Of a stretch of DNA of 24,000 bases, positions 7,265-23,528 are shown in pieces. Origin of the DNA: Paenibacillus faecis (GTDB lineage Bacteria > Bacillota > Bacilli > Paenibacillales > Paenibacillaceae); the NCBI RefSeq assembly GCF_008084145.1, contig NZ_VSDO01000004.1, positions 300,202 to 324,201 of the forward strand. The letters are read 5' to 3'. The first letter of the stretch is position 1, and each line of letters begins with the position of its first letter. Below the pieces are notes generated by a model. It had not been told where the DNA came from and did not search any database. It saw nothing but the letters and a program-made list of their open reading frames with translations. Position numbers and translations under genes: made by a program.

Positions 7265-7273
7265 CTGTTTCCT

Positions 7274-7287
7274 GATTATGTATAATC
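7274..7287. promoter_or_regulatory. Perfect palindrome GATTAT-GT-ATAATC in the 38-nt gap upstream of the HTH-WYL gene (candidate operator or internal promoter)
   Basis: It is the only symmetric element between the VWA stop (7303) and the WYL start (7264). It contains TGTATAAT on the + strand and CATAAT on the - strand. The function is inferred only. Confidence 0.25.
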
Positions 7288-7302
7288 CTATTTTAACAGG
7301 CG

Positions 7303-9126: not shown

Positions 9127-9132
9127 AATCGA

Positions 9133-10805: not shown

Positions 10806-10941
10806 ATCTTCGAGGCGCCTGGACGGGATCCTTCGCCTTTTAAGCGACTGGCCGTTGGTTCGAATCCAACTTCCGCCTAACGGCGGAATAGCTCAGAGGT
10901 AGAGCAGTTTATGTGACCTGTCCGCCTTTTTCCTCGAAGAT
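10806..10941 (+). ncRNA. yrlA: Y RNA 1, YrlA-type: Ro-binding-like basal helix plus a circularly permuted tRNA-like domain
   Basis: The basal stem ATCTTCGAGG (10806-10815) pairs with CCTCGAAGAT (10932-10941). A second stem pairs GGACGGG (10821-10827) with CCTGTCC (10918-10924), across the internal loop CGCCT / GCCTTTTT. Inside are a T-arm GTTGG-TTCGAAT-CCAAC (10854-10870), a closed acceptor-like stem TTCCGCC-TAAC-GGCGGAA (10871-10888), then TA and a D-arm GCTC-AGAGGTA-GAGC (10891-10905). It sits directly upstream of rsr. The exact 5' and 3' ends are unknown. Confidence 0.8.
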
Positions 10942-11205: not shown

Positions 11206-11267
11206 GTTATCTAAATATTCCGTTGGGCGTCATTGCACTCACACACGGATATAGGAGGTTATTTAAA

Positions 11268-12773
11268 ATGAGTTTCGCCCAAAAATTGTTCGGTCCGTTC
11301 AGACCGACCACTCGCAACAAAGATCATTATCCCGCTTATACGCGGTCTGCGGAGGAACAGTACCTGCAGACTTTGCTGACCAATACGATGAGCAATACGT
11401 TTTATGCCGATCAAAAAGAACTCCTGAGCGATGCCGAGCAGCTCCACCATGAAATGGCGGCGGCCAACCCGACGTTTATGGCAAAAGCGCTCGTGTTCGC
11501 CCGCAACACCGGCCTGATGCGCCTGCAGCCGATCTTCGGCTTGGCGGTGCTCTCGGCCTACCGGCCGGATTTGTTCGCCAAGGTGTTCCCGCAGGTCGTG
11601 CGGATTCCTTCCGACCTGTTCGACTTCCTGACCATTCTGAAGGGTCAGGGTCGGGGCGAGGGCGGCCGTGCGGTCAAGCGCCAGGTGAACCACTTCCTGG
11701 CCGGCGTCAGCGAATACTGGGCCGTCAAATACAACGGCCGCGGCCGCGGCTACAGCCTGGGTGACGTGATCGCCACGGCCCATCCGAAGCCGGCGGACTT
11801 GAAGCAGCAGGCGCTGTTCCGGTACCTGCGCGGCTGGGAGGCCGACCTCGAGCTGCTGCCGCAGGTGGCGGCGCTGGAGCGGCTGAAGCGCGCCGCGAGC
11901 GAAAGCGAGCAAATCGAGTGGATCGGCCGCGGCAAGCTTCCGTACGAGACGGTCACCGGCGCGATTCAGCCGACCAAGGCCGTGTGGGAGGCGTTGCTGT
12001 ACCAGATGCCGACCTTTGCGCTGCTCCGCCACCTGAACGCCCTGCAGCGGGCGGGCGTCCTCGACGACAAGCGGAACCTGGACTACGTCATCGCGCGGTT
12101 CAACGATGAGGAGGCGCTGCGCAAGGCGCGCATCCTGCCGTTCCGGTTCGCGACGGCGTTCCGTCAGGTCGAGCATCCCGATCTGCGCGACGCGATGCGG
12201 GACGCGGTGGACCTGACTTTCGGCAACCTGCCGGATTTGGGTGAGGACACGGCGATTTTCCTGGACATCTCCGGCTCGATGGAGGGACAATACCTGGAGA
12301 CCGGTTCGGTATTTGCCCTGGCCCTGTATAAGAAGACGCAGGGGAACTCGCTGTTCTGGCTGTTCAACCACGAGGTCCGCGACGCGAGACCTTCGAAGCG
12401 CGACAGCATTCTCGGCCAGGCGCAGCATATCCGCGCCGGCGGCGGGACCGATACCGGTGCCCCCGTGCGCAAGCTGCTCCTGGAGCGCAAGCGGGTGGAC
12501 CAGATCATTATCATTACGGATGAGCATCAAAACACCGGCAGCCCGTTCTACCGGGAGCTGGCCCAGTACCGTGCCGCCATCAACCCGGAAGTCAAGGCGT
12601 TCATCGTGGACATCGCTCCTTACCGGTACGCGATGGTGCCGGAAATGGACCGCAACACCTTTTACATCTACGGTTGGAGCGACACGGTCCTGTCCTACAT
12701 TGCCCAGACGCTGCAAGGCTACGCGTCCATGACGAAGCAAGTGGATGCCATGGACCTCGACAAGAAGGAGTGA
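11268..12773 (+). CDS. rsr: Ro60 orthologue Rsr (TROVE domain + C-terminal vWA with MIDAS), 501 aa
   Basis: ATG 11268 lies 9 nt after GGAGG (11254-11258). The N-terminal TROVE-like sequence reads ...YLQTLLTNTMSNTFYADQKELL...AKALVFARNTGLMRLQPIFGLAVL. The vWA MIDAS reads AIFLDISGSM...GGGTDTG...IIITDE. It is flanked upstream by Y-RNA-like genes. The ORF-track TTG at 11223 has no RBS. Confidence 0.9.
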   Translation: MSFAQKLFGPFRPTTRNKDHYPAYTRSAEEQYLQTLLTNTMSNTFYADQKELLSDAEQLHHEMAAANPTFMAKALVFARNTGLMRLQPIFGLAVLSAYRPDLFAKVFPQVVRIPSDLFDFLTILKGQGRGEGGRAVKRQVNHFLAGVSEYWAVKYNGRGRGYSLGDVIATAHPKPADLKQQALFRYLRGWEADLELLPQVAALERLKRAASESEQIEWIGRGKLPYETVTGAIQPTKAVWEALLYQMPTFALLRHLNALQRAGVLDDKRNLDYVIARFNDEEALRKARILPFRFATAFRQVEHPDLRDAMRDAVDLTFGNLPDLGEDTAIFLDISGSMEGQYLETGSVFALALYKKTQGNSLFWLFNHEVRDARPSKRDSILGQAQHIRAGGGTDTGAPVRKLLLERKRVDQIIIITDEHQNTGSPFYRELAQYRAAINPEVKAFIVDIAPYRYAMVPEMDRNTFYIYGWSDTVLSYIAQTLQGYASMTKQVDAMDLDKKE

Positions 12774-12779
12774 TCCCCT

Positions 12780-13577
12780 ATGACCCAGGAATCGTCCGAA
12801 TTCCGCCCCGTCATCCTGAACGAGCTTCGGCGCATTGAAGAGCAGGAAGGGGTTCGTATTCTGTACGCCTGCGAGTCGGGAAGCCGCGCTTGGGGCTTCC
12901 CTTCGCGGGACAGCGACTACGATGTCCGGTTTCTTTATATCCGGCCTCTGGACTGGTATCTATCCATTTTTGAGGGACGGGATGTGATCGAGCGGCCGAT
13001 CAGCGATCAACTGGACATCAACGGTTGGGACTTGAAGAAGGCCTTGCAGCTATTCCGCAAATCGAACCCGCCCTTATTGGAATGGCTGTATTCTCCGATA
13101 CAATATTTGGAGAAGTATTCCGTGGCGGAGCAGATCCGCCGCATATCCCCGCTGACGTTTTCGCCAAAATCATGCATATACCATTATCTCAACATGGCGA
13201 AGGGGAATTTCCGGGGATACCTGCAAGGGGAACGGGTGAAGATCAAGAAGTATTTCTACGTACTGCGGCCGGTGCTCGCCTGCGGCTGGATCGAGAAGCA
13301 CAATACGATGCCTCCGGTGGAGTTCGATAAACTGGTGGAGGACTTGATCCCGCCGGAAAGCGCACTGATGGATGCGGTTCAACGCCTGCTTGCTCGCAAA
13401 AAAGCCGGGGAAGAGCTTGATCTGGAGCCTAAGTTGACCGCCATCCACGAATATTTGGAGGAGCGCTTGGATTACTTCGAGGAGGCGGCCGCCCAATTCA
13501 GGACAGAACCGTTGCAGCTCGAAGACGAGCGGTTGGACGCCCTCTTTCGCTCCGCCTTGCGCGAGGTATGGGCGTAG
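12780..13577 (+). CDS. Pol-beta-superfamily nucleotidyltransferase (RlaP-like, RNA-ligase/repair-associated NTase)
   Basis: The NTase motif reads LYACESGSRAWGFPSRDSDYDVRFLY (GS...DxD). The ATG lies 6 nt after the rsr stop, with GAAGGAG upstream. The family assignment is from memory of the PF10127-type sequence pattern. Confidence 0.75.
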   Translation: MTQESSEFRPVILNELRRIEEQEGVRILYACESGSRAWGFPSRDSDYDVRFLYIRPLDWYLSIFEGRDVIERPISDQLDINGWDLKKALQLFRKSNPPLLEWLYSPIQYLEKYSVAEQIRRISPLTFSPKSCIYHYLNMAKGNFRGYLQGERVKIKKYFYVLRPVLACGWIEKHNTMPPVEFDKLVEDLIPPESALMDAVQRLLARKKAGEELDLEPKLTAIHEYLEERLDYFEEAAAQFRTEPLQLEDERLDALFRSALREVWA

Positions 13578-13623: not shown

Positions 13624-14892
13624 ATGGCTATCGTACAGGTTACATCCACGAATCCGAAGTTTTCATTTTTGATCAAGAAAAATCCGCAATCCGGTATGCA
13701 GCTGCGCTCGGTTCGCAAAGGGACGGCGTACGGCTGGTATAGCGGTGAACAGACCTTTAACGTGTATTTTAAAGACGCGGACAACGATATTTCGTATAAG
13801 CAGCATGAGGGGGAGACTTTCGAGTACCTGAACGTGTCGAGATACAATACGCCGCTGTTTCCGTTGAACGCGATCGGCGAGTTCTTTTCCGCTCCGTTAA
13901 AAGCGCGGCATGAGCAGGATACGGAGGGGTATGAGCATACCTTTTTCATCAATATGATTCATATCGAACGGTTGCCGTATATCGATTTTTTCAAGAAGCA
14001 CTTGCAGGATTTCTCATTCGAAATCACCCACCGGGCGCACAAAAGCTATGCCCTGACCGTTAGGACGCACAAAAGCCTGTACCAGCTCCTTCACGCGGTG
14101 AGCGTATTGTGCTTGTTCCTGTCGATGTTCGGCAATGAGCACGTGGATATTTCGGACAGCATTCTGGACAAATACATCAAGAGCCTCCATGTGATCGACG
14201 CGCCGTTTTACATTCGGAGCTTGTTCGTACGGAATTTTCTGGCTTCCCGGGACCGGTTCAAAAAATACAAGGCGGAGCTCGAGAAGACGGACCGCTACAG
14301 CATTCGCTTTGCTTTTGGCGGCACGGCGCTGCAGCGGCGGAACTACATCGGAAGCGCGCTCGCTTTTGACAAGTCGATTCTCGACGTGGGCTGCGGGGAA
14401 GGATTCTACGCGATTCCTTTTGCCGGAAAAATCGAAGGCAGCTATTACGCGGTCGATATCAACGAGGAGCTGTTGGAGCAAGTCCAGCGGAAGGCCGCGC
14501 GAAAAGAGCTGGACAATATCATCACGTTCGCTTCGATCGATCTTTTTCTGGAGAGCTACAACGGGGAACGGGTCGATGTGATTTTGACCGAGGTCATCGA
14601 GCATATGAGCCAGGAGGAAGCGGAGCGACTGATCCGGCAAATCTGCGGGCAGGTGGATTTCGACCGGTTGATCATCACGACGCCGAATGCCGACTTTAAC
14701 CGCTATTATGAGTTGGAGGGTTTCCGGCACGACGATCACAAATGGGAGCTGGGCGGAGCTTCGTTCCAGGCCTGGATCGGCGATCTGTTGAAGCGCTTCG
14801 CGAACTTGCAGTATGAATTTGTGGCCATCGGCGACGAGGTCGACGGGATCACCACGACCCAAGGGGTTATTTTGAAGAGAGAGGGGGCCTGA
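13624..14892 (+). CDS. hen1: Bacterial Hen1, RNA 3'-terminal ribose 2'-O-methyltransferase
   Basis: The N-terminal Pnkp-activating domain begins MAIVQVTSTNPKFSFLIKKNPQSGMQ... The C-terminal SAM-methyltransferase carries ILDVGCGEGFYAIPFA, the metal motif LTEVIEHM and ...FRHDDHKWE. It ends 3 nt before pnkp. Confidence 0.9.
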   Translation: MAIVQVTSTNPKFSFLIKKNPQSGMQLRSVRKGTAYGWYSGEQTFNVYFKDADNDISYKQHEGETFEYLNVSRYNTPLFPLNAIGEFFSAPLKARHEQDTEGYEHTFFINMIHIERLPYIDFFKKHLQDFSFEITHRAHKSYALTVRTHKSLYQLLHAVSVLCLFLSMFGNEHVDISDSILDKYIKSLHVIDAPFYIRSLFVRNFLASRDRFKKYKAELEKTDRYSIRFAFGGTALQRRNYIGSALAFDKSILDVGCGEGFYAIPFAGKIEGSYYAVDINEELLEQVQRKAARKELDNIITFASIDLFLESYNGERVDVILTEVIEHMSQEEAERLIRQICGQVDFDRLIITTPNADFNRYYELEGFRHDDHKWELGGASFQAWIGDLLKRFANLQYEFVAIGDEVDGITTTQGVILKREGA

Positions 14893-14895
14893 TCC

Positions 14896-17517
14896 ATGGA
14901 GATCCGGACGAAGGTTCATACGGTTTTTATGCTGATCGGCTCTACCGAATGCGGCAAAACCACGTTCGCCAAGGAAGTGTTGGTTCCGGGGCTGCGGTTT
15001 GAAGATCGGGACAAAAACATCAAGGCCAACGTGCAATATCTGTCCTCCGACCAGATTCGCCAGGAGGTGCTCGGCCATGATTACGACAAGTACGACCAGG
15101 TGATGCTGGAGGCCAGCGAGCAGGCGTTTCATCTTCTGTTCGAGCGGTTGAAAATGGCGACTTCTTTTCCGGTCAACGCGGAGTTCGTGGTGGTCGATAC
15201 CACCGGGTTGTCCGAGGATTTCCGGGCCAAAGTGAAGGATATCGCCTATCGGAACAATTACAATCTGGAAGCGATCGTGTTCGATTACCGGAAGCGGGAC
15301 GATTACTACGCCTCGGAGCGCTCGAAGAAGCTCATCACCAACCATATCAACCGGCTGAAAAAAGAGGTCCTGGGCTCGCTGGCCCGCGAAGGGTACGACA
15401 AAATTCATAAGGTGCGGGCTAAGGATTTTTACCGGTCCGAGGAAGGGAAGGCGAATCCGGAATACCGCGTCGTCATTGAAAATCTGGAGGATTATCTGGG
15501 CGGCGTTCTCCCGCAGGATCAGCAGTATATTATCATCGGCGACGTCCATGAATGTGTAGGCGATTTGCAGGGGCTGCTGCGCGACCACGGCTTCGGGCTG
15601 GAGGACGGCAGGCTGTCGGCGCCCGAGCGATTGCGGCGGACGAAGATCGTCCTGGTGGGGGACTGGATCGACAAAGGCCGGCAAACGAAGGAGATCATCG
15701 AATTCCTTTACGAAAACCGGGAGTATTTCTACTTTGTGCTCGGCAACCATGAAAATTTTGTGGGCAAATATTTGAACGGGGAAATTCAGGGCGCCGATCA
15801 TGAACTGGTCCGCTCGTATTTCGACTCGATTGAGGTATTGCGCAGCGATGCGGAACTTCTGGAGAAATTCCGGCAACTGGTGTCGCTGTCGAAGCCGTTT
15901 TACCGGTATGTCGGGGTCCAAGGTCCTTCGTTTTATGTCACCCATGCGCCGTGCCGGAAAAAATACATCGGGAAGCTGGACACAAACTCGGCGCGGCACC
16001 AGCGGAATTTCCGGATCGACCGGGAGGCTCCGCTCGAGGAGCAGCTGGCCTTTCTGGAGGAGGAAGCGGTGTCCAATCATCCGTACCATGTGTTCGGACA
16101 TATTGCGGCGAAGCAGCCGTTCCGCATCCGCAACAAAATCCATATCGATACCGGCAGCGTTCACGGGAATCAGTTGACTTCGGTCGGCATCTCGTACAAA
16201 CCGTTCCTGAAGTCCCGCAAGTCCGCCCAGGCGGTCATCGGGGGAGGGGAAGAGCTGAAGACGCTGTTCAAGCGGGAGCGGAAGGTGTCGGTGGCGGACC
16301 TGGAAGAGGACGAAATCCGCCGGCTGCATTACTGCTCGCGGCATAAGATCAACTTTATCTCCGGGACGATGTCGCCGGCCGATAAGGACGAAGCGAGCGG
16401 CGAGCTGGAGTCTCTGGAGCGCGGACTGGCTTATTTCAGGGACCGCGGCGTGACGCAAGTCGTACTGCAGCCCAAATATATGGGCTCGAGATGCAATGTG
16501 TATCTGCATAAGGAGCCGGAGCGTTGCTTTGCCGTCAGCCGGAACGGATACAAGATCAATCAGGTGGACTTGTCGGAGATCTTCGGCAAGCTGCTGCGGA
16601 AGTTCGGCGCCTATATGGAGGAGCGTCAGATTGCCATGCTTATGCTGGACGGGGAGCTCCTGCCGTGGAAGGCGCTGGGCGAAGGCCTGATCGAACGGCA
16701 GTTTAAGCCGATCGGGGCAGCGCTGGAATCCGAGCTTGCGTTTCTGCGGCATAACGGCTTCGAGCAGGCGTTCGGGAAGCTGCTGGAGGACTATGAAGCG
16801 AGCGGCTTTGAGCAGGACCAGTTCCGCGTTTCGAAGTCCGCCCTGAGCGACAAATACGGTCCGAGCGTGTACCAGAACTACAAGCATGTTCATGAGCTCC
16901 GCGACACCTATGTCCCGCTGGAAGAACATGTCCAAGCTTACGAGACCTATAAGCGTCAGTTGGAATGGTATGCGGCGGACGGCGAAGGCGAAGTGGAGCT
17001 GGAGTTGGAGCTGGAGCTGGAGTACAAACCGTTTGCCCTGCTCAAAATCGTCTACGAGGACGGGCGGGAGCAATTGCCGGATTGGACGACGTCCGACATG
17101 TACGGGTTCCTGTCGGAGGACGAAGCGCTGGCGCTGGACTTGTCCGCGCCGGACAGTCTGGAGCAAGCGGAGCGGTACTTCGCCGAACTGACGCTGGAGA
17201 AGCATATGGAGGGCGTCGTTATCAAACCGGAGGTGTGGACCGGCGCCACCGTGCCTTACATGAAGGTGCGGAACCCCGAGTACCTGTCCATCATCTACGG
17301 CTACGACTACCGGTTCCCGCACAAGTACCGCAAGCTGCTCAAGCAAAAGAACATCAGCCAGAAGCTGCGCGCCTCGCTGAACGAGTACCGGCTCGGGATG
17401 AGCCTGCTGGGCGTTCCTTTCGCCGACATCGCCCCCGGGCACGCGGCGTATCAGGAAATCGCCGCCAACCTGCTGTTTGAAGTGGCGCAGGAGAAGGCCA
17501 TCGATCCGCGGCTGTAA
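14896..17517 (+). CDS. pnkp: Polynucleotide kinase-phosphatase-ligase Pnkp (trifunctional RNA end-healing and sealing enzyme), 873 aa
   Basis: The kinase P-loop reads GSTECGKTT (aa 15-23). The calcineurin-type phosphoesterase motifs are IIGDVHEC, GDWIDKG and GNHE. The adenylyltransferase/ligase domain carries QPKYMGSR (Lys about 527). The length and domain order match Clostridium thermocellum Pnkp. Confidence 0.9.
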   Translation: MEIRTKVHTVFMLIGSTECGKTTFAKEVLVPGLRFEDRDKNIKANVQYLSSDQIRQEVLGHDYDKYDQVMLEASEQAFHLLFERLKMATSFPVNAEFVVVDTTGLSEDFRAKVKDIAYRNNYNLEAIVFDYRKRDDYYASERSKKLITNHINRLKKEVLGSLAREGYDKIHKVRAKDFYRSEEGKANPEYRVVIENLEDYLGGVLPQDQQYIIIGDVHECVGDLQGLLRDHGFGLEDGRLSAPERLRRTKIVLVGDWIDKGRQTKEIIEFLYENREYFYFVLGNHENFVGKYLNGEIQGADHELVRSYFDSIEVLRSDAELLEKFRQLVSLSKPFYRYVGVQGPSFYVTHAPCRKKYIGKLDTNSARHQRNFRIDREAPLEEQLAFLEEEAVSNHPYHVFGHIAAKQPFRIRNKIHIDTGSVHGNQLTSVGISYKPFLKSRKSAQAVIGGGEELKTLFKRERKVSVADLEEDEIRRLHYCSRHKINFISGTMSPADKDEASGELESLERGLAYFRDRGVTQVVLQPKYMGSRCNVYLHKEPERCFAVSRNGYKINQVDLSEIFGKLLRKFGAYMEERQIAMLMLDGELLPWKALGEGLIERQFKPIGAALESELAFLRHNGFEQAFGKLLEDYEASGFEQDQFRVSKSALSDKYGPSVYQNYKHVHELRDTYVPLEEHVQAYETYKRQLEWYAADGEGEVELELELELEYKPFALLKIVYEDGREQLPDWTTSDMYGFLSEDEALALDLSAPDSLEQAERYFAELTLEKHMEGVVIKPEVWTGATVPYMKVRNPEYLSIIYGYDYRFPHKYRKLLKQKNISQKLRASLNEYRLGMSLLGVPFADIAPGHAAYQEIAANLLFEVAQEKAIDPRL

Positions 17518-17529
17518 TGACGATGCACA

Positions 17530-17567
17530 AGAGCCTGAACCGCCGGGAGGGGGTTCAGGCTCTTTTT
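17530..17567 (+). terminator. Rho-independent terminator of the rsr-pnkp operon
   Basis: AGAGCCTGAACC (17530-17541) pairs perfectly with GGTTCAGGCTCT (17552-17563), a 12-bp stem followed by TTTT. It lies 13 nt after the pnkp stop. Confidence 0.8.
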
Positions 17568-17591
17568 GGGGCATCCGTGCCGCTCTGAATA

Positions 17592-17786
17592 TTATTAACG
17601 GGAAAACCTCCCGTTAATTTTCCGCTCTTGGGCGTTGGATTCGAAATAGATGGAAAAGTTCCATCTATTTTACGCCCAACCGCCGAGATACATTGGTTTC
17701 GGCTAAATTAGCGGGAGGTTTTCCAGCTAATTCGACTTTGCAGCCCAATAGGCCCAATTTAACGGGAGGAAATCCCGTTAGTTGGG
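17592..17786 (-). repeat. Repeat family 1, copy C (inverted relative to copies A and B), followed by a degenerate duplicated ~60-nt unit to about 17880
   Basis: The reverse complement aligns along its full length with copy A (...GAATTAGCTGGAAAACCTCCCGCTAATTT..., ...AAAATTAACGGGAGGTTTTCCCGTTAATAAT). It contains the perfect 12-bp palindrome AAATAGATGGAA/TTCCATCTATTT. The unit at 17760-17819 recurs in diverged form at 17820-17879. Confidence 0.8.
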
Positions 17787-18020
17787 ACTATGGCTCCGCA
17801 AAACGGGTTAGTCACCTCGTTAACGGGAGGGAGTGCCGCTAGCCGGGATACTTGTCCCGCAAGACGGGGAGTCACTCATGATGATCGGAGGGATTCCCGT
17901 TAGCTGGGCGCTGGTACTGGGTACTGGCTACTGGGTGATAATTCATGGCTTCCTGTATCCCCAGCCGGCGCTCCGGCGCCTCCGGATTCATTTGGTTGGC
18001 GGCCTGCTCGTTGTTTGGAC

Positions 18021-18413
18021 TTACGCCCCGGTTTGCCCTTGCTGTTTCAACAGATCGCGGATTTCCGCGAGCAGCGCTTCCTCCTTGGACGGTTCGGGCG
18101 GGGCTTCCGGCTTCGGCGCCTCTTCCTTCCGTTTGAACCTGTTGAGTCCTTTCACAAACAGGAAAATGGAGAAAGAGATAATGAAGAAATCGATGACGGT
18201 CTGCAAAAAAGCGCCGTACAACAATTTCGTTTCCCCGTATTGAAAGATCAGGTCCTTGAAGTCGATGCCGCCCATCAAAATCCCGAATAGGGGCATCAGC
18301 ATGTCATTGACCAGGGAAGTTACGATTTTTCCGAAAGCGCCCCCGATAATGACCCCGATGGCCAGATCGAGGACATTGCCCTTCAGGGCAAAGGCTTTAA
18401 ACTCTTTCCACAT
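18021..18413 (-). CDS. mscL: Large-conductance mechanosensitive channel MscL
   Basis: [42 protein letters not shown]... is a textbook MscL N-terminus with TM1. ATG 18413 lies 9 nt after AAAGGTGGG; the ORF-track start at 18437 overlaps that RBS. Confidence 0.9.
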
Positions 18414-18575
18414 TCTAGTAAACCCACCTTTTTTCATATATTACAGGCAGTATACCATATAAGGTGTAGGGGAGAAATCCATAGCCATGGCGGAACGGAC
18501 GGGACGGGGCCTTTGCGAATGTACGGAAGGTGGTGCATACGGCGACCACTGTCTCCTGTTGGAGCTGGGCGGAGG

Positions 18576-18784
18576 AATAGCGGTCATTTGCGCCGTTATT
18601 TTGTCGAATTTGGCTAATCGGAGGAAAATAGCGGCCTTTTGGGCGCTTATTTTGGGGTAAAACGGGCCAAAACCTGATTTTGGGGCCGGTGAGAGGGAAA
18701 TAAGGCCTTTTTTGACCGCTATTTTGCTCGCGGAGCCGAATTTGGCCGAAATAGCGCCTCAAAAGACCGTTATTTGCGGCGGGG
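18576..18784 (+). repeat. Repeat family 2, copy 2 (same orientation as copy 1)
   Basis: It is collinear with 10432-10640. It lies in the divergent mscL/kptA intergenic region and ends 44 nt before the candidate kptA promoter. Confidence 0.8.
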
Positions 18785-18827: not shown

Positions 18828-18856
18828 ATGACCTTCCGGTTCAGGGGAGTTATAAT
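18828..18856 (+). promoter_or_regulatory. Candidate sigma-A-type promoter for the kptA operon
   Basis: ATGACC (18828-18833), a 17-nt spacer, then a perfect TATAAT (18851-18856), about 75 nt upstream of the kptA ATG. Confidence 0.4.
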
Positions 18857-18930
18857 GCAATCAAGGACAGGTTGGTAGAATCCGCCAACAGAACAATCAC
18901 AGCACAACCAACAGAACGAAGGGGGTGAAC

Positions 18931-19488
18931 ATGATGCTGGATTCAAATTCGGAGAAAGGGCTCAGCAAGCTGATGAGCAAAATGCTCCGCCATACCCCGG
19001 AGGAATTCGGCCTTCAACTGAGTCCCGAAGACGGGTCGTGCGCGATGGACACGTTTCTCCAGGCGGTCACGGCCCAGCGGCGGTGGTCCTGGGTACGGCG
19101 CGAAGATGTGGAGCAGGTCGTCCGCAACTCCGATAAGCAGCGTTACATCATCGAGAATGACCGCATCCGGGCCAGATACGGCCACAGTCACACTCGGGTG
19201 CAGTACGCTCCGGCCGAGCCTCCCGCCGTGTTATACCACGGAACGAACCGGAAGGCGCTCCCGGCCATACTCCAGGAAGGACTTCGCCCGATGACGCGGC
19301 AATATGTCCATCTGTCGGAAGGGACGCATTTCGCCACGCTGGCGGGGAGCCGCCGAGGAGAGCTAGTCATCCTCCGGATCAATACGCAAAAAGCGAGGGA
19401 GGCGGGCGTGAGCTTTTACTTCGCCGGGAATGAAGTATGGCTGGCCGATCGGATCCCGCCGGGATGCTGCGAAATGGACGGAACCTAG
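18931..19488 (+). CDS. kptA: RNA 2'-phosphotransferase, Tpt1/KptA family
   Basis: The translation reads LSKLMSKMLRHTPEEFGLQL...RYGHSH...VLYHGTNRKALPAILQEGLRPMTRQYVHLSEG. This carries the Arg-His-Arg-Arg catalytic-tetrad context of Tpt1. ATG 18931 lies 5 nt after GAAGGGGG; the alternatives are 18925 and 18934. Confidence 0.85.
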   Translation: MMLDSNSEKGLSKLMSKMLRHTPEEFGLQLSPEDGSCAMDTFLQAVTAQRRWSWVRREDVEQVVRNSDKQRYIIENDRIRARYGHSHTRVQYAPAEPPAVLYHGTNRKALPAILQEGLRPMTRQYVHLSEGTHFATLAGSRRGELVILRINTQKAREAGVSFYFAGNEVWLADRIPPGCCEMDGT

Positions 19489-19547
19489 CCGTTCCGCGGA
19501 CCGCGGCGGATTTTACCCATGACATAACTGCGGAGGTTGTACGGAAA

Positions 19548-20465
19548 ATGAAATTTGTGTTTTGTTCGGACCCTTTGGACGAGAAGGCTCCGGACATGGA
19601 GTACTTGCGGGAATATGAAACCGCCCGCGGGCTTGGCGCGGACGTTTATTTGATCTCTTTGGAGGCGCTGCTGGAGGGCGGCGCGGAACGGGCGGTCCGG
19701 CGCCTGCCCGTTTTTGAAACGCGGGAAGTGTTTGTATACCGGGGCTGGATGCTGAAGCCGGATGATTACGAGCGCCTTTATCAGGCTCTATCGGACAAGA
19801 ACGCCATCCTGATCAATTCGCCCGAGGAATACAGGAATGGGCATGAATTCCCTTATGCTTACGAAGCCATTAAGGCGGTGACCCCTTTCAGTATATGGGT
19901 TCCCAAGGAGGAGCTAAACGAGGGTTTGACCCCGCTCTTTGAAAAAATGGACGTCTTCGGGAACAAGCCTGTTCTGGTCAAAGACTATGTCAAATCAAGA
20001 AAGCACGAGTGGGATGACGCCTGCTTCATTCCGGACGCCTCGGATCGGGAGGGGGTCCGCAGAGTCGCGGAGAATTTCCTCAACCGCCAAGGCACGGATC
20101 TTAACGGAGGACTTGTCATCCGGGAGTTTGCGGCTCTCGCCGGACTGGGCGTGCACCCGAAGAGCGGGATGCCGCTGGCCCAGGAGTACCGGTTGTTTTT
20201 TCTGGACCATCAAATGATCGCCTGCATGGACTATTGGGATGAAGCGGCTTATGAACACGAAAGCCGGGCTGATTCGACGCTCGCCCCTTTCCTGAAGGTG
20301 GCCGAGAGGATCGAGAGCCGTTTTTTCACAATGGACCTGGCCAAGACAGCCGGCGGGGAATGGCTGGTGATCGAGGTGGGCGACGGACAGGTTTCCGGCC
20401 TGCCGATTCAGGCGGATGCGGCGTATTTTTATAGAGCAATCATAGAAGGATTGGCGAAGGGGTGA
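19548..20465 (+). CDS. ATP-grasp-fold protein (probable; resembles the R2K/DUF4343-type ATP-grasp family)
   Basis: ATG 19548 (MKFVFCSDP...) follows GGAGG (19532-19536). The central region reads ...NKPVLVKDYVKSRKHEW... and the C-terminus reads ...FFTMDLAKTAGGEWLVIEVGDGQVSGLP, which is typical of ATP-grasp metal-binding strands. The family call is from memory, not a search. The ORF-track start at 19437 overlaps kptA. Confidence 0.55.
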   Translation: MKFVFCSDPLDEKAPDMEYLREYETARGLGADVYLISLEALLEGGAERAVRRLPVFETREVFVYRGWMLKPDDYERLYQALSDKNAILINSPEEYRNGHEFPYAYEAIKAVTPFSIWVPKEELNEGLTPLFEKMDVFGNKPVLVKDYVKSRKHEWDDACFIPDASDREGVRRVAENFLNRQGTDLNGGLVIREFAALAGLGVHPKSGMPLAQEYRLFFLDHQMIACMDYWDEAAYEHESRADSTLAPFLKVAERIESRFFTMDLAKTAGGEWLVIEVGDGQVSGLPIQADAAYFYRAIIEGLAKG

Positions 20466-20473
20466 GGGAAGAG

Positions 20474-21349
20474 ATGCGTATCGACAGCAGAATTAAAGGC
20501 GGAGTATACGGCGTGGCCGTCGGGGATGCTCTTGGCGGAACGACCGAATTTATGAGTGCCGGCGAAATTCGGGCGCAATACGGGTACTTGCAGCAGATCA
20601 TCGGGGGCGGAGTTTGGGGGCTCGCGCCCGGAGAAGTCACGGACGACACCATGATGACGTTATGCGTCGCCGAAGGGATTTTGCAAAACCCGGCCGACCC
20701 GGAGGAGCAGATCGGGCGTCTTTTTCTGGAGTGGTACCAATCCCGGCCGAAAGATATCGGAAACATTATCCGTCACGTTTTTGAACACTACGAGGACAGT
20801 TGGAAGGAGGCCGCTTTCTACGCGCACGTGGATCTCGGGCAAAGCGGCGGGAACGGCTCTCTGATGAGATGCTTGCCCGTAGCTTTGGCCTACAGGGAAC
20901 CGGCCGATATCGACAAGGTGACGGTGATGCAATCGCGGATGACGCATTATGACCCACGGTGCAATGAAGCCTGCGTCATCTATAACCGGATCGCTTACCG
21001 CTTGCTGTGCGGGGAAGAGCTCGGGGACGCCATCCGGCGCGAGGCCGCCGGGACGGAATACGAAGGGTTGATCGAACGGGAGCCCGATTGCGAACCGAGC
21101 GGGTTTGTGGTGCATACGTTTCGCTGGGTACTGCATATTTTGCTGACGGCTCCGGATTTCGGCGCCGTAGTCGAGCGGGCCGCCAACCTTGGCGGGGATT
21201 CCGACACGATCGGAGCGATCGCGGGCGGACTGGCCGGGATTTATTTCGGTTACGAAGGCATTCCGTCAAAATATACGGAAGCGATCTTGATCAAAGAACG
21301 GTTGGAGAGGGTTGCAAGCCGGTTGGCACAGTTAAGAGGTGCGCTGTAA
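20474..21349 (+). CDS. ADP-ribosylglycohydrolase (ARH/DraG) family protein
   Basis: The translation contains GGVYGVAVGDALGGTTEF...GEVTDDTMMTLCVAEG...GNGSLMRCLP...NLGGDSDTIGAIAGGLAG, covering both metal-binding Asp clusters of the ARH fold. The start is ATG 20474, or GTG 20462 overlapping the upstream stop. Confidence 0.85.
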   Translation: MRIDSRIKGGVYGVAVGDALGGTTEFMSAGEIRAQYGYLQQIIGGGVWGLAPGEVTDDTMMTLCVAEGILQNPADPEEQIGRLFLEWYQSRPKDIGNIIRHVFEHYEDSWKEAAFYAHVDLGQSGGNGSLMRCLPVALAYREPADIDKVTVMQSRMTHYDPRCNEACVIYNRIAYRLLCGEELGDAIRREAAGTEYEGLIEREPDCEPSGFVVHTFRWVLHILLTAPDFGAVVERAANLGGDSDTIGAIAGGLAGIYFGYEGIPSKYTEAILIKERLERVASRLAQLRGAL

Positions 21350-21438
21350 ACAATACGGCGAATTTCCTGAATTTCCTAAAATTAGGGCTATGAGATCCGA
21401 AATATATATCTAAAGAATATTAGAGATGAGTGACCGGA

Positions 21439-22161
21439 ATGCTATCTATCGCCATTTGCGACGACCAGGCCCTGGATTGCCTCAAGTTTTCGGGAAAGGT
21501 TCGCGCTATTTTGCAAGAAGCGGGTGTTGCCCATAACATTAAGCAATTCCTATCGGGGGCGGCTTTAATGGAGTCGGCGTGCGCGTTCGATCTTGTTTTT
21601 TTGGACATCAAAATGGAGCGGTTGGACGGATTAACGACCGCCGCCTTGATGAGAAAAAGGAACCGGCCTTTTCTGCTCGTATTTATTACGGCTTACCGGG
21701 AATATGTTTACGAGGCCTTCGACGTAGAGGCCTTTCATTATCTCGTCAAGCCTGTCGACGACGGAAAGCTGGCCAAGGTGCTTCTGGCGGCGGTTGATAA
21801 ATGCTTGAACGGCGAGAGGGAAGAAGGGTATATGGTCGTAACCCGAAACCGGGAGGCCATAAAACTGGCTTTGGACGATGTGATTTACTTTGAAATTAGC
21901 GGGCGCGTGATCAAAGCACACTGCAGCAATCGCGTGGTGGAATACTACGATCAGATTGGCGCTTTAGAGGAGAGACTCATCGGGCGGAGCTTTTTTAGAT
22001 GTCACAAGAGCTTCCTTATTCATCTAAAGCATGTAGTGAGTTTCGACAAACATGAAATTCTGATGGACAACGGGGACAGGGTCTTACTGTCCAAACGCCG
22101 ATACAAAGAGTTTACGGAAGCGCTTCTGAAATATTTGAAAAAAGAAGGCGGCATGATATGA
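21439..22161 (+). CDS. LytTR-family response regulator (REC + LytTR DNA-binding domain)
   Basis: The REC domain reads MLSIAICDDQ...DLVFLDIKMERLDG...HYLVKP. The C-terminal LytTR domain reads ...IYFEISGRVIKAHCSNRVVEYYDQIGALEERL...FFRCHKSFLIHLKHV. The alternative start is GTG 21430. Confidence 0.85.
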   Translation: MLSIAICDDQALDCLKFSGKVRAILQEAGVAHNIKQFLSGAALMESACAFDLVFLDIKMERLDGLTTAALMRKRNRPFLLVFITAYREYVYEAFDVEAFHYLVKPVDDGKLAKVLLAAVDKCLNGEREEGYMVVTRNREAIKLALDDVIYFEISGRVIKAHCSNRVVEYYDQIGALEERLIGRSFFRCHKSFLIHLKHVVSFDKHEILMDNGDRVLLSKRRYKEFTEALLKYLKKEGGMI

Positions 22162-23528
22162 GCTTCTGGTTCTTCGCCAAATGCCTTGTGTTAGGCCTTT
22201 ACGGAGTTGGAATTTTCCTTTTTTGCCACAGGGTGCTCGGGACCAAGGGTTCGCCAAGAACAGCGGCCGTCGTGCTGGTCCTGTATGAAATCGGCTTTGA
22301 TTACTTGCTTCTGAACAGAGTGCTCGGCGTAAATTATTTTGTGGCGGTGACCTGCTCCTGGTTGGGACTGCTGCTGCTGATCCAGCTCTTGTTTAGAGGC
22401 AACCCCGCTCAGAAGCTGGCTATAGCTATGGTGTTATACGTCATTCAACAGCTTACCGCGTATGCGGTTGTTCCACTGCTGACACGAAGTGTGGATGTGA
22501 TGTTTGATCACTATGATGCGGTGACGCCATATTATATCAATTACTGGATCAGCACGCTTCGCTATGTGGTCTGCCTTGCTCTTCTCCATGTCATTTCCCG
22601 TCGTTGCTCCGCTTTGGGCGGCAATCTTCCGCACCGAATTTCCGCGCTTCTGCTGCTTCCCATGGCTTTTATCGTGCTGGCGTTGGAATTAGCGGCGTAT
22701 GTATTCAACACCAAACAGTTTTTTCATCTGCTCTACGTATACAAAGCTGACCCGCTGCCACTGTGGTTTTTCCAGTTTGCCGATCCGGCCGTGCTGTTCC
22801 TGCTATCCGGACTTGGCCTTGCGGCAAGCTTGAAGCTCGTCTTCGGGACCGACCACGCGATGGTTCAGCTCATGAACGAGCAGCGCCTGGCCTTGCAGAT
22901 AGCGCATTATCAGGCTCTGGAGAACCAGCACAAGGAATTGCGGCATATCCGGCACGATATGAAAAATCATGTGATCAGTCTCATGGGTTTGCTGGAAGAC
23001 CACCGTGTGAACGCCGCCCAAGTCTATTTGAACCGCCTATCCGAAAAAAGCGGGTTGCTGGCGGATTACGCAACAACCGGGAACCCCGTTGCCGATGCGA
23101 TATTATACGTTAAGGGGCAGGAGGCAAGGGAGCATGGCATCGATTTTCAATGCGACCTGCACGGGCCTGGGCTTTCCGGGATCGCGGATTTTGATCTTAG
23201 CGTCATGCTGGGCAATGCGCTGGATAATGCCATAGAGGCTTGCAACCGGATCAAGCAGCCGGACCGGCAGAAATTTGTTCGGATTCAGACCGGGGCCGCC
23301 AAGCACTTTTTTATATTGGAAATCAGGAACAGTATGGAATACGCAAGGGACCCGTCCGCGGTTCTATTAACCCGTAAGGTCCCAGCCTCATGGCACGGCA
23401 TGGGAATGGCCGGCATGAAAGCCATGGTGGAGAAGTATCGGGGGACGATGAATATCGAGTTGCAGCCCGGGGTGTTCTGTCTCTCCCTTATGCTGCCCTT
23501 GGCAAACAGGCAGGCCGACCGTTCATGA
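22158..23528 (+). CDS. Membrane sensor histidine kinase, GHKL ATPase (AgrC/LytS-like HPK10 class)
   Basis: ATG 22158 overlaps the response-regulator stop (ATGA). The N-terminal half is multi-pass hydrophobic. The H-box reads LRHIRHDMKNH, the N-box LGNALDNAIEA and the G-box HGMGMAGMKAMVEKYRG. Confidence 0.8.
   Translation: MSFWFFAKCLVLGLYGVGIFLFCHRVLGTKGSPRTAAVVLVLYEIGFDYLLLNRVLGVNYFVAVTCSWLGLLLLIQLLFRGNPAQKLAIAMVLYVIQQLTAYAVVPLLTRSVDVMFDHYDAVTPYYINYWISTLRYVVCLALLHVISRRCSALGGNLPHRISALLLLPMAFIVLALELAAYVFNTKQFFHLLYVYKADPLPLWFFQFADPAVLFLLSGLGLAASLKLVFGTDHAMVQLMNEQRLALQIAHYQALENQHKELRHIRHDMKNHVISLMGLLEDHRVNAAQVYLNRLSEKSGLLADYATTGNPVADAILYVKGQEAREHGIDFQCDLHGPGLSGIADFDLSVMLGNALDNAIEACNRIKQPDRQKFVRIQTGAAKHFFILEIRNSMEYARDPSAVLLTRKVPASWHGMGMAGMKAMVEKYRGTMNIELQPGVFCLSLMLPLANRQADRS

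Follow-up and report, generated by a model that had tools for sequence, protein, structure and literature searches.

A KptA, R2K.3 ATP-grasp and DraG-like ADP-ribosylhydrolase gene trio as a possible end-processing arm of an RNA-repair island in Paenibacillus faecis

The role of KptA/Tpt1 in bacteria has been a puzzle for about 25 years. In a 24,000-nucleotide stretch of Paenibacillus faecis DNA, analysed here as a whole and referred to as the window, a KptA gene stands near a Pnkp/Hen1 RNA-repair cassette together with an ATP-grasp gene and an ADP-ribosylhydrolase (ARH) gene. This raises the question of what the three genes do and whether they belong to the cassette. The trio and its promoter candidate are located as follows.

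18828-18856, + strand: promoter candidate of the trio, ATGACC-17 nt-TATAAT (10 of 12 positions in a consensus scan)
18931-19488, + strand: KptA/Tpt1 RNA 2'-phosphotransferase, 185 aa from ATG 18931 (PF01885, E 2.7e-39)
19548-20465, + strand: R2K.3-clade ATP-grasp, 305 aa, ATG 19548 after GGAGG (PF14243 R2K_3, E 4.1e-38)
20462-21349, + strand: DraG-like ADP-ribosylhydrolase (PF03747, E 1.5e-66, 225 bits)

The genes for KptA, the R2K.3-clade ATP-grasp and the DraG-like ARH are arranged head to tail on the + strand. The earlier note had listed three co-oriented reading frames of the Tpt1/KptA, ATP-grasp and ADP-ribosylglycohydrolase families; positions and families were confirmed, the latter by the matches to PF01885, PF14243 and PF03747. 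A KptA start at ATG 18931, 5 nt after AGGGGG (18920-18925), is likely; GTG 18925 is open too. The gap of 59 nt between KptA and R2K.3 (19489-19547) was found as claimed. A second gap of 8 nt exists only if ARH starts at ATG 20474 (291 aa). With GTG 20462 (295 aa), the start picked by gene callers for ARH orthologues (295 aa), the gene instead overlaps the R2K.3 stop by 4 nt (GTGA). The claimed TATAAT promoter candidate was recovered, although the consensus scan alone was not above chance (1 observed versus 2.2 expected). The promoter is probably real because TGACC-N17-GTTATAATGCAAT is kept in three lineages, the window, Paenibacillus sp. A14 and the metagenome locus L089, despite diverged flanks.

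KptA scored 135.5 bits against PF01885 (cut-off 26), with residues 10-175 aligned to positions 3-176 of the 177 in the profile. The nearest solved structures in the PDB were 9ld4 and the C. thermocellum Tpt1 (6e3a/6ede), at E-values of 1e-34 to 1.5e-35, and the motifs LRH, IRARYGHS and RQYVHLS align with solved Tpt1 structures. Among 11 orthologues, R22, H23, R84 and R125 never vary, and R82 is kept in at least 90%. The catalytic Arg-His...Arg...Arg tetrad is present, its residues being mapped by motif and not by structure; in RslTpt1 it consists of R16, H17, R64 and R119 (PMC6097658). The equivalog cut-offs of NCBIfam (NF002014 and others) were missed, with 177.5 bits at best versus 239. By sequence, the protein is a member of the Tpt1 family and not an equivalog of the curated NCBIfam subgroups. 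Tpt1/KptA canonically acts on a 2'-PO4 junction (PMC6097658). Terminal 2'/3'-PO4 groups are removed by a Firmicute Tpt1, with accumulation of a 3'-P-ADPr intermediate (PMC6573784), and some members of the family can add an ADP-ribose (ADPr) cap to 5'-P ends, efficiently in a subset only (PMC6182162).

The nearest solved structure for ARH was DraG (2woc, E 1.4e-47). Its segments GDALGGTTEF, TDDT, RPKDIGN and GGDSDT align with the 2woc motifs (GDALG..TEF, TDDT, RP.D.GN, GGD.DT), and the di-metal site motifs are present. The cut-off of the DraG equivalog TIGR02662 was missed (206 versus 337 bits). The nearest relatives of ARH are the arginine-ADPr hydrolases DraG and Tri1; ARH3 and SCO5809, for which activity on phosphate-linked ADPr has been demonstrated, are less similar. 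A domain search of the window revealed neither DraT nor any ADP-ribosyltransferase besides KptA. The ARH gene is retained across over 100 protein clusters of the Paenibacillus group, and in L083 and L088 (L numbers denote compared loci) orthologues stand by themselves in unrelated surroundings.

The middle protein had to be classified as RNA-ligase-like or R2K. It matched PF14243 with 131.6 bits (cut-off 26.3) and R2K_2 more weakly. In 61 homologues, K145, K149 and K152 of the RAGNYA-strand segment KDYVKSRKHEW are invariant, as is E276-x-G278-D279, the diagnostic ExGD that replaces ExN in the last strand. An AF2 model (pLDDT 93.3, pTM 0.89) predicted a well-conserved pre-ATP-grasp domain and an overall ATP-grasp fold. 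Among the best 50 of 1128 Foldseek matches of this model to the PDB were ArgX/LysX, ITPK1, PsnB, Ddl and RimK, those to ArgX, LysX, Ddl and RimK covering the whole length (TM 0.55-0.68, probability 1.0); none of these 50 was a nucleotidyltransferase-type RNA or DNA ligase. A profile search of the PDB with the sequence gave no ligase and nothing else relevant. As no such ligase was among these 50 best matches and the protein is strongly acidic (pI about 5), identity as a nucleic-acid ligase was rejected. Profile and model matches place the protein in R2K.3, as an amidoligase/kinase-type ATP-grasp. No assay of any R2K.3 member was found in the literature. Of the R2K clade, only the eukaryotic eIF2 assembly factor CDC123 has been studied, an ATPase that acts on the translation GTPase eIF2 (PMC12860950).

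The region 5' of the trio contains the following features.

5122-5988, - strand: 288-aa partner, in the group of island regulators and cofactors (Pfam)
5945-7264, - strand: WYL-WCX regulator (Pfam)
7303-9126, - strand: DUF2201 vWA-metallopeptidase (Pfam)
9133-10194, - strand: MoxR AAA (Pfam)
10812-10931, + strand: YrlA-like Y RNA with tRNA-like module, 5' of Ro60
11223-12773, + strand: Ro60/Rsr, with TROVE and vWA_Ro60 domains
12780-13577, + strand: RlaP nucleotidyltransferase (RlaP, E 1e-98)
13624-14892, + strand: Hen1, N domain and methyltransferase (Hen1_N, E 2.7e-106)
14896-17517, + strand: Pnkp, with kinase, phosphatase and ligase (PNKP_ligase, Metallophos and AAA_33 domains)
17529-17564, + strand: probable terminator, a hairpin after Pnkp (inverted repeat I6 with arms of 16 nt that are 94% complementary) and then TTTTT
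18021-18437, - strand: mscL, an intervening gene outside the system (PF01741, E 7e-44)

The RNA-repair island is complete in the window and comprises WYL regulators, MoxR-vWA, the YrlA-like RNA, Ro60, RlaP, Hen1 and Pnkp. Hen1 and Pnkp are intact, lie 1.4 kb 5' of the trio and adjoin each other with the spacing (3 nt) and orientation typical of the Pnkp/Hen1 pair. The regulator and cofactor genes of 5122-10194 also flank KptA operons of relatives. The YrlA-like RNA matched Rfam RF02553 (YrlA) over its full length (1-114) with 39 bits and E 9e-7, below the gathering score of 69; it reached 28 bits with a tRNA model (cut-off 29), and ARAGORN detected no tRNA. With the PADLOC defence-system models, KptA, R2K.3, ARH and Pnkp gave no match and Hen1 only a generic methyltransferase match. 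In the window itself, the terminator, mscL and a separate promoter lie between the Hen1-Pnkp cassette and the trio, and mscL was correctly named by the earlier note as the sole gene between Pnkp, which ends at 17517, and KptA. Among the loci compared, mscL occupies this position solely in the window, A14, L086 and L089; in the window it is flanked by palindromic repeat arrays. The gene order of the window recurs in Paenibacillus sp. A14 and one Logan contig.

In other Paenibacillaceae, the operon order is Hen1-Pnkp-KptA-(TatD)-ARH, with TatD between KptA and ARH in most loci of relatives. Pnkp lies directly 5' of KptA in at least 10 loci (L002, L064, L087, L090, L092, L095, L097, L149, L188, L189), and Pnkp-mscL-KptA is found in the window, L081 and L089, with a Pnkp remnant in L086. 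KptA and ARH share an operon in about 10 loci (window, L081, L002, L004, L085, L086, L089, L186, L188, L189). The P. durus operon (CP009288) runs Hen1-Pnkp-KptA-ARH, and its last two genes share 4 nt. The claimed link to Pnkp/Hen1 is borne out by these neighbourhoods: since KptA and ARH recur in Hen1-Pnkp operons of relatives, they are regular members of that system. Comparison of gene orders shows KptA and ARH as regular operon partners of Hen1-Pnkp and R2K.3 as an occasional add-on. It likewise shows Hen1-Pnkp-KptA-(TatD)-ARH as the ancestral order, with mscL having split the operon and R2K.3 having taken the slot of TatD in the lineage of the window. An adjacent ARH is missing at about half of the Paenibacillaceae KptA loci; KptA-Pnkp operons of L092, L095, L097 and L149 have no neighbouring eraser, and NADAR stands in place of ARH in L064 and L148.

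Conservation of the trio as such did not hold up. R2K.3 stands beside KptA in only four lineages; strict adjacency of all three genes is confined to the window and A14, its nearest relative, and the two further lineages, P. sinensis and Gorillibacterium, have an extra gene inside the trio. In an unbiased KptA-anchored sample, R2K.3 was adjacent to KptA in none of 19 Paenibacillus-type loci, and KptA and ARH occur without R2K.3 in L085, L086, L089, L186, L188 and L189. Because R2K.3 is a stand-alone gene with unrelated neighbours in about 85% of 97 loci, its tie to the pathway is facultative. The gene directly 3' of R2K.3 is ARH in the window, L002 and L004, NADAR in L064, KptA in the cyanobacterial loci L039 and L078, and a microbial PARG with a 4-nt overlap in the viral contig L172. 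R2K.3 is tied to RNA repair by Ro60-R2K.3-PARG in a viral contig and by an Archease-Rnl-RtcB-R2K.3 operon in Ktedonobacter. GNAT is the commonest 5' neighbour (7/74 loci).

We give an even chance to the reading that the three genes form a small operon, driven by a separate promoter, and provide the YrlA-Ro60-RlaP-Hen1-Pnkp island with an NAD+/ADP-ribose arm for end processing, in which R2K.3 is an accessory. KptA would use NAD+ to remove 2'- (and 3'-) phosphates left on broken RNA ends or junctions, which would otherwise block sealing by Pnkp and methylation by Hen1. Side products would include dead-end phospho-ADP-ribose adducts, such as stalled 3'-P-ADPr, 5'-P-ADPr caps placed on 5'-phosphates made by the Pnkp kinase, and an ADP-ribose cyclic-phosphate as by-product. 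ARH would hydrolyse the ADPr-phosphate linkages and give back ligatable ends. R2K.3 would be an optional accessory of the ATP-dependent amidoligase/ATPase type, acting on an ADP-ribose- or repair-linked protein or small molecule. This assignment is favoured by the identity of the island, the intact catalytic motifs of KptA and ARH, the promoter footprint, the operon partnership, the published Tpt1 and hydrolase chemistry and the ADP-ribose- and repair-linked neighbours of R2K.3. Against it count the DraG/Tri1-like character of ARH, its solitary occurrence in L083 and L088, and the absence of ARH from about half of the KptA loci. The phosphatase of Pnkp itself can heal 2',3'-cyclic ends, so the need for KptA is left without explanation. 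ARH-like and macrodomain hydrolases reverse phosphate-end ADPr made on RNA by KptA, and a Deinococcus ligase-PARG-HD-Pnk operon follows the same logic (PMC11833690). Phosphate-end ADPr RNA is reportedly not a substrate of NADAR (PMC11833690), which substitutes for ARH in L064 and L148; this also counts against the end-processing role.

Three other explanations are each considered unlikely. In the first, option (b) of the earlier note, KptA adds a 5'-phospho-ADP-ribose cap to broken RNA and ARH is the dedicated decapper; until repair takes place, the cap would either shield 5'-P ends against RNase J-type decay or serve to mark them. The tight coupling of KptA and ARH, including the overlap in P. 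durus, argues for it, as do the known capping activity of Tpt1 (PMC6182162), the reversal of phosphate-end ADPr by ARH-like hydrolases (PMC11833690) and the Pnkp kinase of the same operon as source of the 5'-P acceptor. Capping is efficient only for a subset of Tpt1 enzymes, however (PMC6182162), many KptA-Pnkp operons lack an adjoining eraser (as in L092, L095, L097 and L149), TatD and R2K.3 are left without explanation, and the physiological relevance of phosphate-end ADPr is unproven (PMC11833690). Published biochemistry makes it plausible that ADP-ribose is written and erased at nucleic-acid ends (PMC6182162, PMC6573784, PMC11833690), with only KptA and ARH of the trio as candidates for such a role.

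In the second, the joint target of R2K.3 and the DraG-like ARH would be a protein of the translation apparatus that carries ADP-ribose, put there for instance by an attacking phage or toxin ADP-ribosyltransferase; they would repair or modify this protein, and KptA would be a mere neighbour from RNA repair. This would suit the affinity of ARH to arginine-specific DraG/Tri1, the action of CDC123 on eIF2 (PMC12860950), the protein targets predicted by Burroughs et al. 2015 from R2K.3-ARG-R2K.2 operons (PMC4431377) and the structural neighbours LysX/ArgX, RimK and PsnB, all of which act on protein or peptide carboxylates. GNAT as the commonest 5' neighbour of R2K.3 also speaks for it, and the acidic R2K.3 would fit a basic protein partner. 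However, ARH of Paenibacillaceae is linked far more often to KptA than to R2K.3, the cyanobacterial R2K.3 (L039, L078) adjoins KptA without any hydrolase, and KptA is the sole ADP-ribosyltransferase within the window.

In the third, R2K.3 landed between KptA and ARH by local rearrangement and has no functional tie to them; the same unstable spot would have gained mscL, repeats and a LytTR two-component pair. The stand-alone occurrence in most of 97 loci, the absence from the 19 unbiased loci, the repeat arrays on either side of mscL and the restriction of the strict trio to the window and A14 are consistent with this. It is opposed by independent recurrences in varied arrangements and phyla (L002, L003, L004, L006, L064, L029, L039/L078, L054, L172) and by three non-homologous ADPr hydrolases just 3' of R2K.3, mostly with 4-nt overlaps. 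Seven co-occurrences with KptA were seen in 80 windows of 17 kb, versus less than 0.1 by chance in a rough estimate with assumed inputs.

We consider it quite improbable that R2K.3 uses ATP to write a reversible mark and is thus the missing counterpart of KptA and the ADP-ribose hydrolases, which would be the erasers. As an RNA 2'-OH kinase, an activity that is pure conjecture, R2K.3 might place a 2'-phosphate that would immunise repaired RNA against transesterifying ribotoxins, analogous to the 2'-O-methyl of Hen1, with KptA as eraser as in the ArkI/KptA pair. As a carboxylate-hydroxyl ligase, it might form an ester between the carboxylate of a protein or amino acid and either ADP-ribose or an ADPr-capped RNA end, an NAD+-independent path to an ADP-ribosyl ester later removed by ARH, PARG or NADAR. 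If true, R2K.3 would be a new class of RNA-repair or ADP-ribose enzyme, and the presence of KptA, ARH, NADAR or PARG 3' of R2K.3 in unrelated lineages would be explained.

Option (a), a yeast-like pathway parallel to Pnkp/Hen1 in which an ATP-grasp RNA ligase would make a 2'-PO4 junction, KptA remove the 2'-PO4 and ARH clear the ADP-ribose product, is compatible with the gene order and the canonical KptA substrate (PMC6097658) but was dismissed as highly improbable, because R2K.3 is a carboxylate-ligase/kinase-type ATP-grasp with a full pre-ATP-grasp domain, is acidic and has no ligase among its sequence and best structural matches, TatD or nothing normally fills its slot, a Trl1-type cyclic phosphodiesterase is absent from the window, and Pnkp already supplies the ligase of the island.

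Among known systems, DraT/DraG regulatory ADP-ribosylation is similar in that DraG is the best sequence and active-site motif match of ARH; it differs in the missed equivalog cut-off, the lack of DraT in the window and the location of ARH in an RNA-repair operon. The R2K.3-ARG-R2K.2 and R2K.3-GNAT operons share the ATP-grasp family, its lysines and ExGD, and an ARH directly 3', whereas the trio locus has no R2K.2 or GNAT. Their description states that no further R2K.3-linked genes were seen; links to KptA, Pnkp/Hen1, RtcB/Archease/Rnl, Ro60, PARG and NADAR are unmentioned there (PMC4431377). The R2K.3 family hereby gains a first RNA-repair and ADP-ribose context.

Reversible phosphate-end ADP-ribosylation of RNA/DNA (writers TRPT1 and SCO3953; erasers ARH3, SCO5809, macrodomains and PARG; PMC6582358, PMC11833690) likewise combines a KptA-family transferase with an ADPr hydrolase, including a hydrolase within a nucleic-acid repair operon. 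Its writers and erasers are encoded apart, whereas KptA and ARH of Paenibacillus are translationally coupled and the ARH is DraG-like, not ARH3-like. KptA-TatD-ARH could be a non-homologous analogue of systems in which a phosphotransferase is followed by enzymes that open and remove ADPr-linked phosphate, but the trio locus has no 2H or macro domain and no Trl1-type ligase. In tRNA Up47 2'-phosphorylation, ArkI is the ATP-using writer and KptA the NAD+-dependent eraser, a precedent for a physiological KptA substrate outside splicing; ArkI has a protein-kinase fold, belongs to thermophiles and is absent here (PMC9095486).

The Runella slithyformis cluster also has a bacterial Tpt1 beside end-healing and ligase genes, and a role of Tpt1 in a bacterial repair pathway was likewise inferred from it (PMC6097658). 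Its partners are HD-Pnk, an inactive-looking ligase and an MTase-HIT fusion, without ADPr hydrolase, TatD or ATP-grasp, and RslTpt1 has no terminal phosphatase activity (PMC6573784). The earlier expectation of a long-missing context for bacterial KptA is partly dated, as the Runella and ArkI studies had already described such contexts (PMC6097658, PMC9095486). No description of the KptA-(TatD/R2K.3)-ARH extension was found in the literature; Burroughs and Aravind 2016 (NAR 44:8525) may show parts of it. The Pnkp/Hen1 cassette as described in 2009 (summarised in PMC6097658) consists of two genes. Both are present here, and relatives carry KptA and ARH as extra cistrons. Since KptA is a regular cistron of this tractable operon and is coupled to an ADP-ribose hydrolase, its role becomes testable through RNA ends, ADPr adducts and ribotoxin phenotype.

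The three open reading frames described in the earlier note were found in the window as follows:

18931–19488, + strand: KptA/Tpt1 (PF01885, E 2.7e-39), most likely starting at ATG 18931 after AGGGGG
19548–20465, + strand: R2K.3 ATP-grasp (PF14243 R2K_3, E 4.1e-38), starting at ATG 19548
20462–21349, + strand: DraG-like ADP-ribosylglycohydrolase, ARH (PF03747, E 1.5e-66), starting at ATG 20474 or GTG 20462

The gap of 59 nt described earlier follows from the ATP-grasp start at ATG 19548. The second gap, given as 8 nt, holds if ARH starts at ATG 20474, and is replaced by a GTGA overlap with the upstream stop codon if it starts at GTG 20462. Terminator-like matches within the R2K.3 frame were at chance level (5 found versus 5.9 expected). 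As had been claimed, mscL (minus strand) is the sole gene separating Pnkp from KptA. Pnkp is followed by a hairpin and T-run terminator (17529–17564), and the TATAAT promoter candidate at 18828–18856, with 10 of 12 consensus positions, is by itself not significant. A TGACC-N17-GTTATAATGCAAT element is kept in three lineages, the spacers being otherwise diverged. Downstream of ARH, an 80-nt AT-rich spacer without a terminator-like site precedes a LytTR response regulator and a GHKL histidine kinase (21430–23528); this pair is limited to the window and Paenibacillus sp. A14, and is missing from loci L086 and L089.

The trio closes, on the 3' side, a complete RNA-repair island whose other elements are, in order:

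first, on the minus strand: a 288-aa protein, WYL-WCX regulator
next, on the minus strand: DUF2201 vWA-metallopeptidase, MoxR ATPase
10812–10931, + strand: YrlA-like Y RNA (Rfam YrlA model, 39 bits, E 9e-7)
after the Y RNA, in this order: Ro60/Rsr, RlaP nucleotidyltransferase, Hen1, Pnkp

The YrlA-like RNA lies just 5' of Ro60/Rsr and has a tRNA-like module embedded. It was detected by a permissive search and spans the full length of the Rfam model, yet its score is below the gathering score of 69. At the gathering threshold Rfam gave no match anywhere in the window, and ARAGORN called no tRNA, the tRNA-like module included. PADLOC gave no defence-system match among the trio proteins. A 1186-aa antisense frame overlying Hen1 and Pnkp (14014–17574, minus strand) was rejected as a gene, being an artefact of GC-rich coding on the opposite strand.

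Conservation of neighbours was examined by anchoring on R2K.3, ARH and KptA in turn. An unbiased metagenome scan yielded 19 loci with a Paenibacillus-type KptA; Pnkp was located directly 5' of KptA in 6 of these, TatD followed KptA in 4, RlaP or Rsr adjoined it in 2, ARH was present in 2, and R2K.3 in none. Loci of further relatives were examined by targeted look-up:

Cohnella: KptA-TatD-ARH
P. puldeungensis: mscL(-)-KptA-TatD-ARH, with a Pnkp remnant
locus L087: Rsr-RlaP-Hen1-Pnkp-KptA-TatD
locus L186: KptA-TatD-(small ORF)-ARH
locus L188: Hen1-Pnkp-KptA-TatD-ARH, with overlapping cistrons
P. durus: Hen1-Pnkp-KptA-ARH, KptA and ARH overlapping by 4 nt

More than 100 Paenibacillus-group clusters have an ARH orthologue (65–79% identity). 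In the closest relative, sp. A14, gene order is identical to that of the window; P. rhizosphaerae and one Logan contig carry ARH without its trio partners. In one KptA subgroup with RlaP-Hen1-Pnkp-KptA operons (L098, L099, L100 and L149; example L149:10541–11083), a gene for a UDG-superfamily (Mug-like) glycosylase is located directly 3' of KptA.

Distant KptAs (about 40% identity) were found in very different contexts, with SUKH-like and polymorphic-toxin-like genes. At 25 such loci (L128–L168, gut and other metagenomes) a small immunity-protein-like gene precedes KptA, with a weak SUKH_5 match (E 2.9e-4; 21 bits, below the Pfam cut-off of 27). At 17, frames are repeated several times per locus and resemble filamentous-haemagglutinin/polymorphic-toxin repeats by eye alone. 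These contexts would suggest a conflict-system role for the distant KptAs, unlike the repair context of the window. KptA, NADAR (E 5e-53) and RlaP are consecutive once, on a low-GC metagenome contig (L148:9986–12234), a further case in which KptA is combined with an ADPr hydrolase and a repair NTase.

Among 80 species-level genome loci of 17 kb each anchored on R2K.3, KptA was present in 7, Pnkp/Hen1 in 3 and ARH in 2; outside the KptA, ARH and Pnkp loci no prevailing R2K.3 neighbourhood was seen. The informative gene orders were:

P. sinensis: Hen1-Pnkp-KptA-X-R2K.3-ARH
P. forsythiae: Hen1-Pnkp-R2K.3
Gorillibacterium: KptA-TatD-R2K.3-ARH
locus L006: R2K.3-NTase-KptA-TatD
locus L064 (Paenibacillus periandrae): Pnkp-KptA-TatD-R2K.3-NADAR
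loci L039 (cyanobacterium) and L078: R2K.3 and KptA adjacent, KptA 38–40% identical to that of the window

The ARH of Gorillibacterium massiliense (L004:8927–9812) consists of two overlapping frames, owing to a frameshift or sequencing error. Pnkp of P. periandrae (L064:1114–5768) is broken by an insertion of about 4.6 kb with three frames (233, 683 and 525 aa), and KptA and TatD are each divided into two. A basic conserved protein of about 95 aa without Pfam match (motif MSRSVKKSPVWTDH...GKWYRKLFCSW; example L064:7482–7829, minus strand) was found in L001, L002, L003, L006, L007, L008, L064, L091 and L186, divergently just 5' of R2K.3 or, in relatives, between TatD and ARH; the window lacks it.

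What is conserved is the unit Hen1-Pnkp-KptA-(TatD)-ARH, set in an island that also has WYL regulators, RlaP and either Ro60 or Band-7/RtcB. The sub-lineage of the window underwent an insertion of mscL and repeat arrays 3' of Pnkp, after which the distal genes gained or retained their own promoter. KptA-TatD-ARH is retained in L086 and L089 of this sub-lineage, and TatD is replaced by R2K.3 in the window and A14. Two palindromic-repeat arrays bracket mscL (17590–17910 and 18570–18780), one with TTAACGGGAGG..CCCGTTA units about 61 nt apart and the other with AATAGCGG..CCGTTATTT units; both resemble REP/MITE-type elements and would mark where the operon was split by rearrangement.

The pattern of downstream neighbours in a wider set of 97 loci (80 genomic and 17 viral) is a second, independent signal for R2K.3. 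In this set the gene directly 3' of R2K.3 encodes an ADP-ribose (ADPr) enzyme in 6 of 66 cases (ARH 2, KptA 2, NADAR 1, microbial PARG 1), and junctions with such genes are mostly 4-nt overlaps. The window and A14 (L081/L082) stand outside the set and are further ARH cases. Three non-homologous ADPr hydrolases (ARH, PARG and NADAR) sharing one slot are a classic displacement pattern. The most frequent 5' partner, GNAT (7 of 74 loci), had already been reported in 2015, in a paper whose authors stated that they saw no additional linked genes (PMC4431377).

In Ktedonobacter, R2K.3 is the last gene of an RNA-ligation operon (Archease, ATP-dependent RNA ligase (PF09414), RtcB and R2K.3 in K. robiniae, L054:3890–8906); in K. 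racemifer (L048) a 712-aa frame lies directly 5' of R2K.3, with Rnl and RtcB another 6 kb or so in the 5' direction. On viral contig IMGVR_UViG_3300045741_000433 (L172:3729–12143), a nucleoside-deoxyribosyltransferase-like/Nudix (Nudix/SLOG) fusion is followed by Ro60, R2K.3, microbial PARG (4-nt overlap), a vWA protein and an NMNAT-like cytidylyltransferase, which looks like a viral NAD/ADPr-RNA module. On large viral contigs R2K.3 adjoins a gene for RNase HII, a metallophosphatase or a 3'-5' exoribonuclease-like protein. The GenBank phage collection gave a single weak match to R2K.3, which is therefore not common in isolated phages.

Judging from conserved residues, KptA and ARH look active: KptA retains the Arg-His...Arg...Arg positions, and ARH all DraG metal-site and catalytic motifs. 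With 206 bits against a cut-off of 337, ARH falls short of a DraG equivalog, and DraT/DraG nitrogenase regulation was rejected, DraT being absent from the window and the context wrong. An obligate KptA-ARH toxin-antitoxin pair was likewise rejected, as many KptA operons lack ARH.

Tpt1 of the Firmicute C. thermocellum uses NAD+ to strip 2'- and 3'-phosphates from RNA termini, with build-up of a 3'-phospho-ADPr RNA intermediate (PMC6573784). Certain Tpt1 enzymes attach ADPr to 5'-phosphate ends, a reaction that leads to a dead end (PMC6182162). KptA-made phosphate-end ADPr on RNA is reversed by ARH-like and macrodomain hydrolases, not by NADARs (PMC11833690). From the observed gene linkage we infer a phosphate-end chemistry in which the kinase of the operon would make 5'-phosphates, and substrates would bear 2',3'-cyclic, 2'- or 3'-phosphates. 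KptA would serve as NAD+-dependent end healer, ARH would clear its adducts or by-products, and TatD may trim ends or open ADPr cyclic phosphate. R2K.3 would be an optional ATP-dependent accessory, tied to ADPr chemistry or to a translation-apparatus protein; CDC123, the sole studied R2K member, is an ATPase assembling eIF2 (PMC12860950). There are caveats: Pnkp's own phosphatase puts the need for KptA in doubt, the window ARH is DraG-like and so of the arginine-ADPr type, NADAR in the place of ARH is a misfit for the phosphate-end model, and ARH and R2K.3 are each found alone in many genomes.

Three rival readings are each considered unlikely, and about equally so: purposeful capping and decapping by KptA and ARH, a protein-directed R2K.3/ARH pair, and R2K.3 as a passenger, against which the downstream-neighbour signal speaks. 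The earlier proposal of the ATP-grasp as an RNA ligase, with KptA and ARH clean-up, is highly improbable and was rejected because of the R2K.3 features, structural matches without a listed nucleic-acid ligase, and the acidity of the family.

The ATP-grasp of the window bears the hallmarks by which Burroughs et al. recognise R2K.3 (PMC4431377), namely KDYVKSRKHEW with the invariant lysines and an ExGD motif. Its confident AF2 model (pLDDT 93.3) matches protein- or peptide-acting carboxylate-amine and carboxylate-hydroxyl ligases (ArgX/LysX, PsnB, MdnC, RimK), as well as Ddl and the inositol-phosphate kinase ITPK1 (TM about 0.5–0.7); no nucleic-acid ligase is among the structural matches listed. 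A sequence-profile search of the PDB gave chance matches only. Family members are strongly acidic, with a median pI of 5.1 and a net charge near -13.

The literature search turned up no published link between R2K.3 and either KptA or RNA repair. The Hen1-Pnkp-KptA-(TatD)-ARH operon appears undescribed in the literature searched (2016 RNA-repair survey excluded), as do, within the same scope, the links of R2K.3 to KptA, ADPr hydrolases and RtcB operons. Modular RNA-repair islands as such, and the components of this one, are already known, and the Deinococcus ligase-PARG-HD-Pnk operon follows the same logic as KptA-ARH in an RNA-repair operon (PMC11833690).
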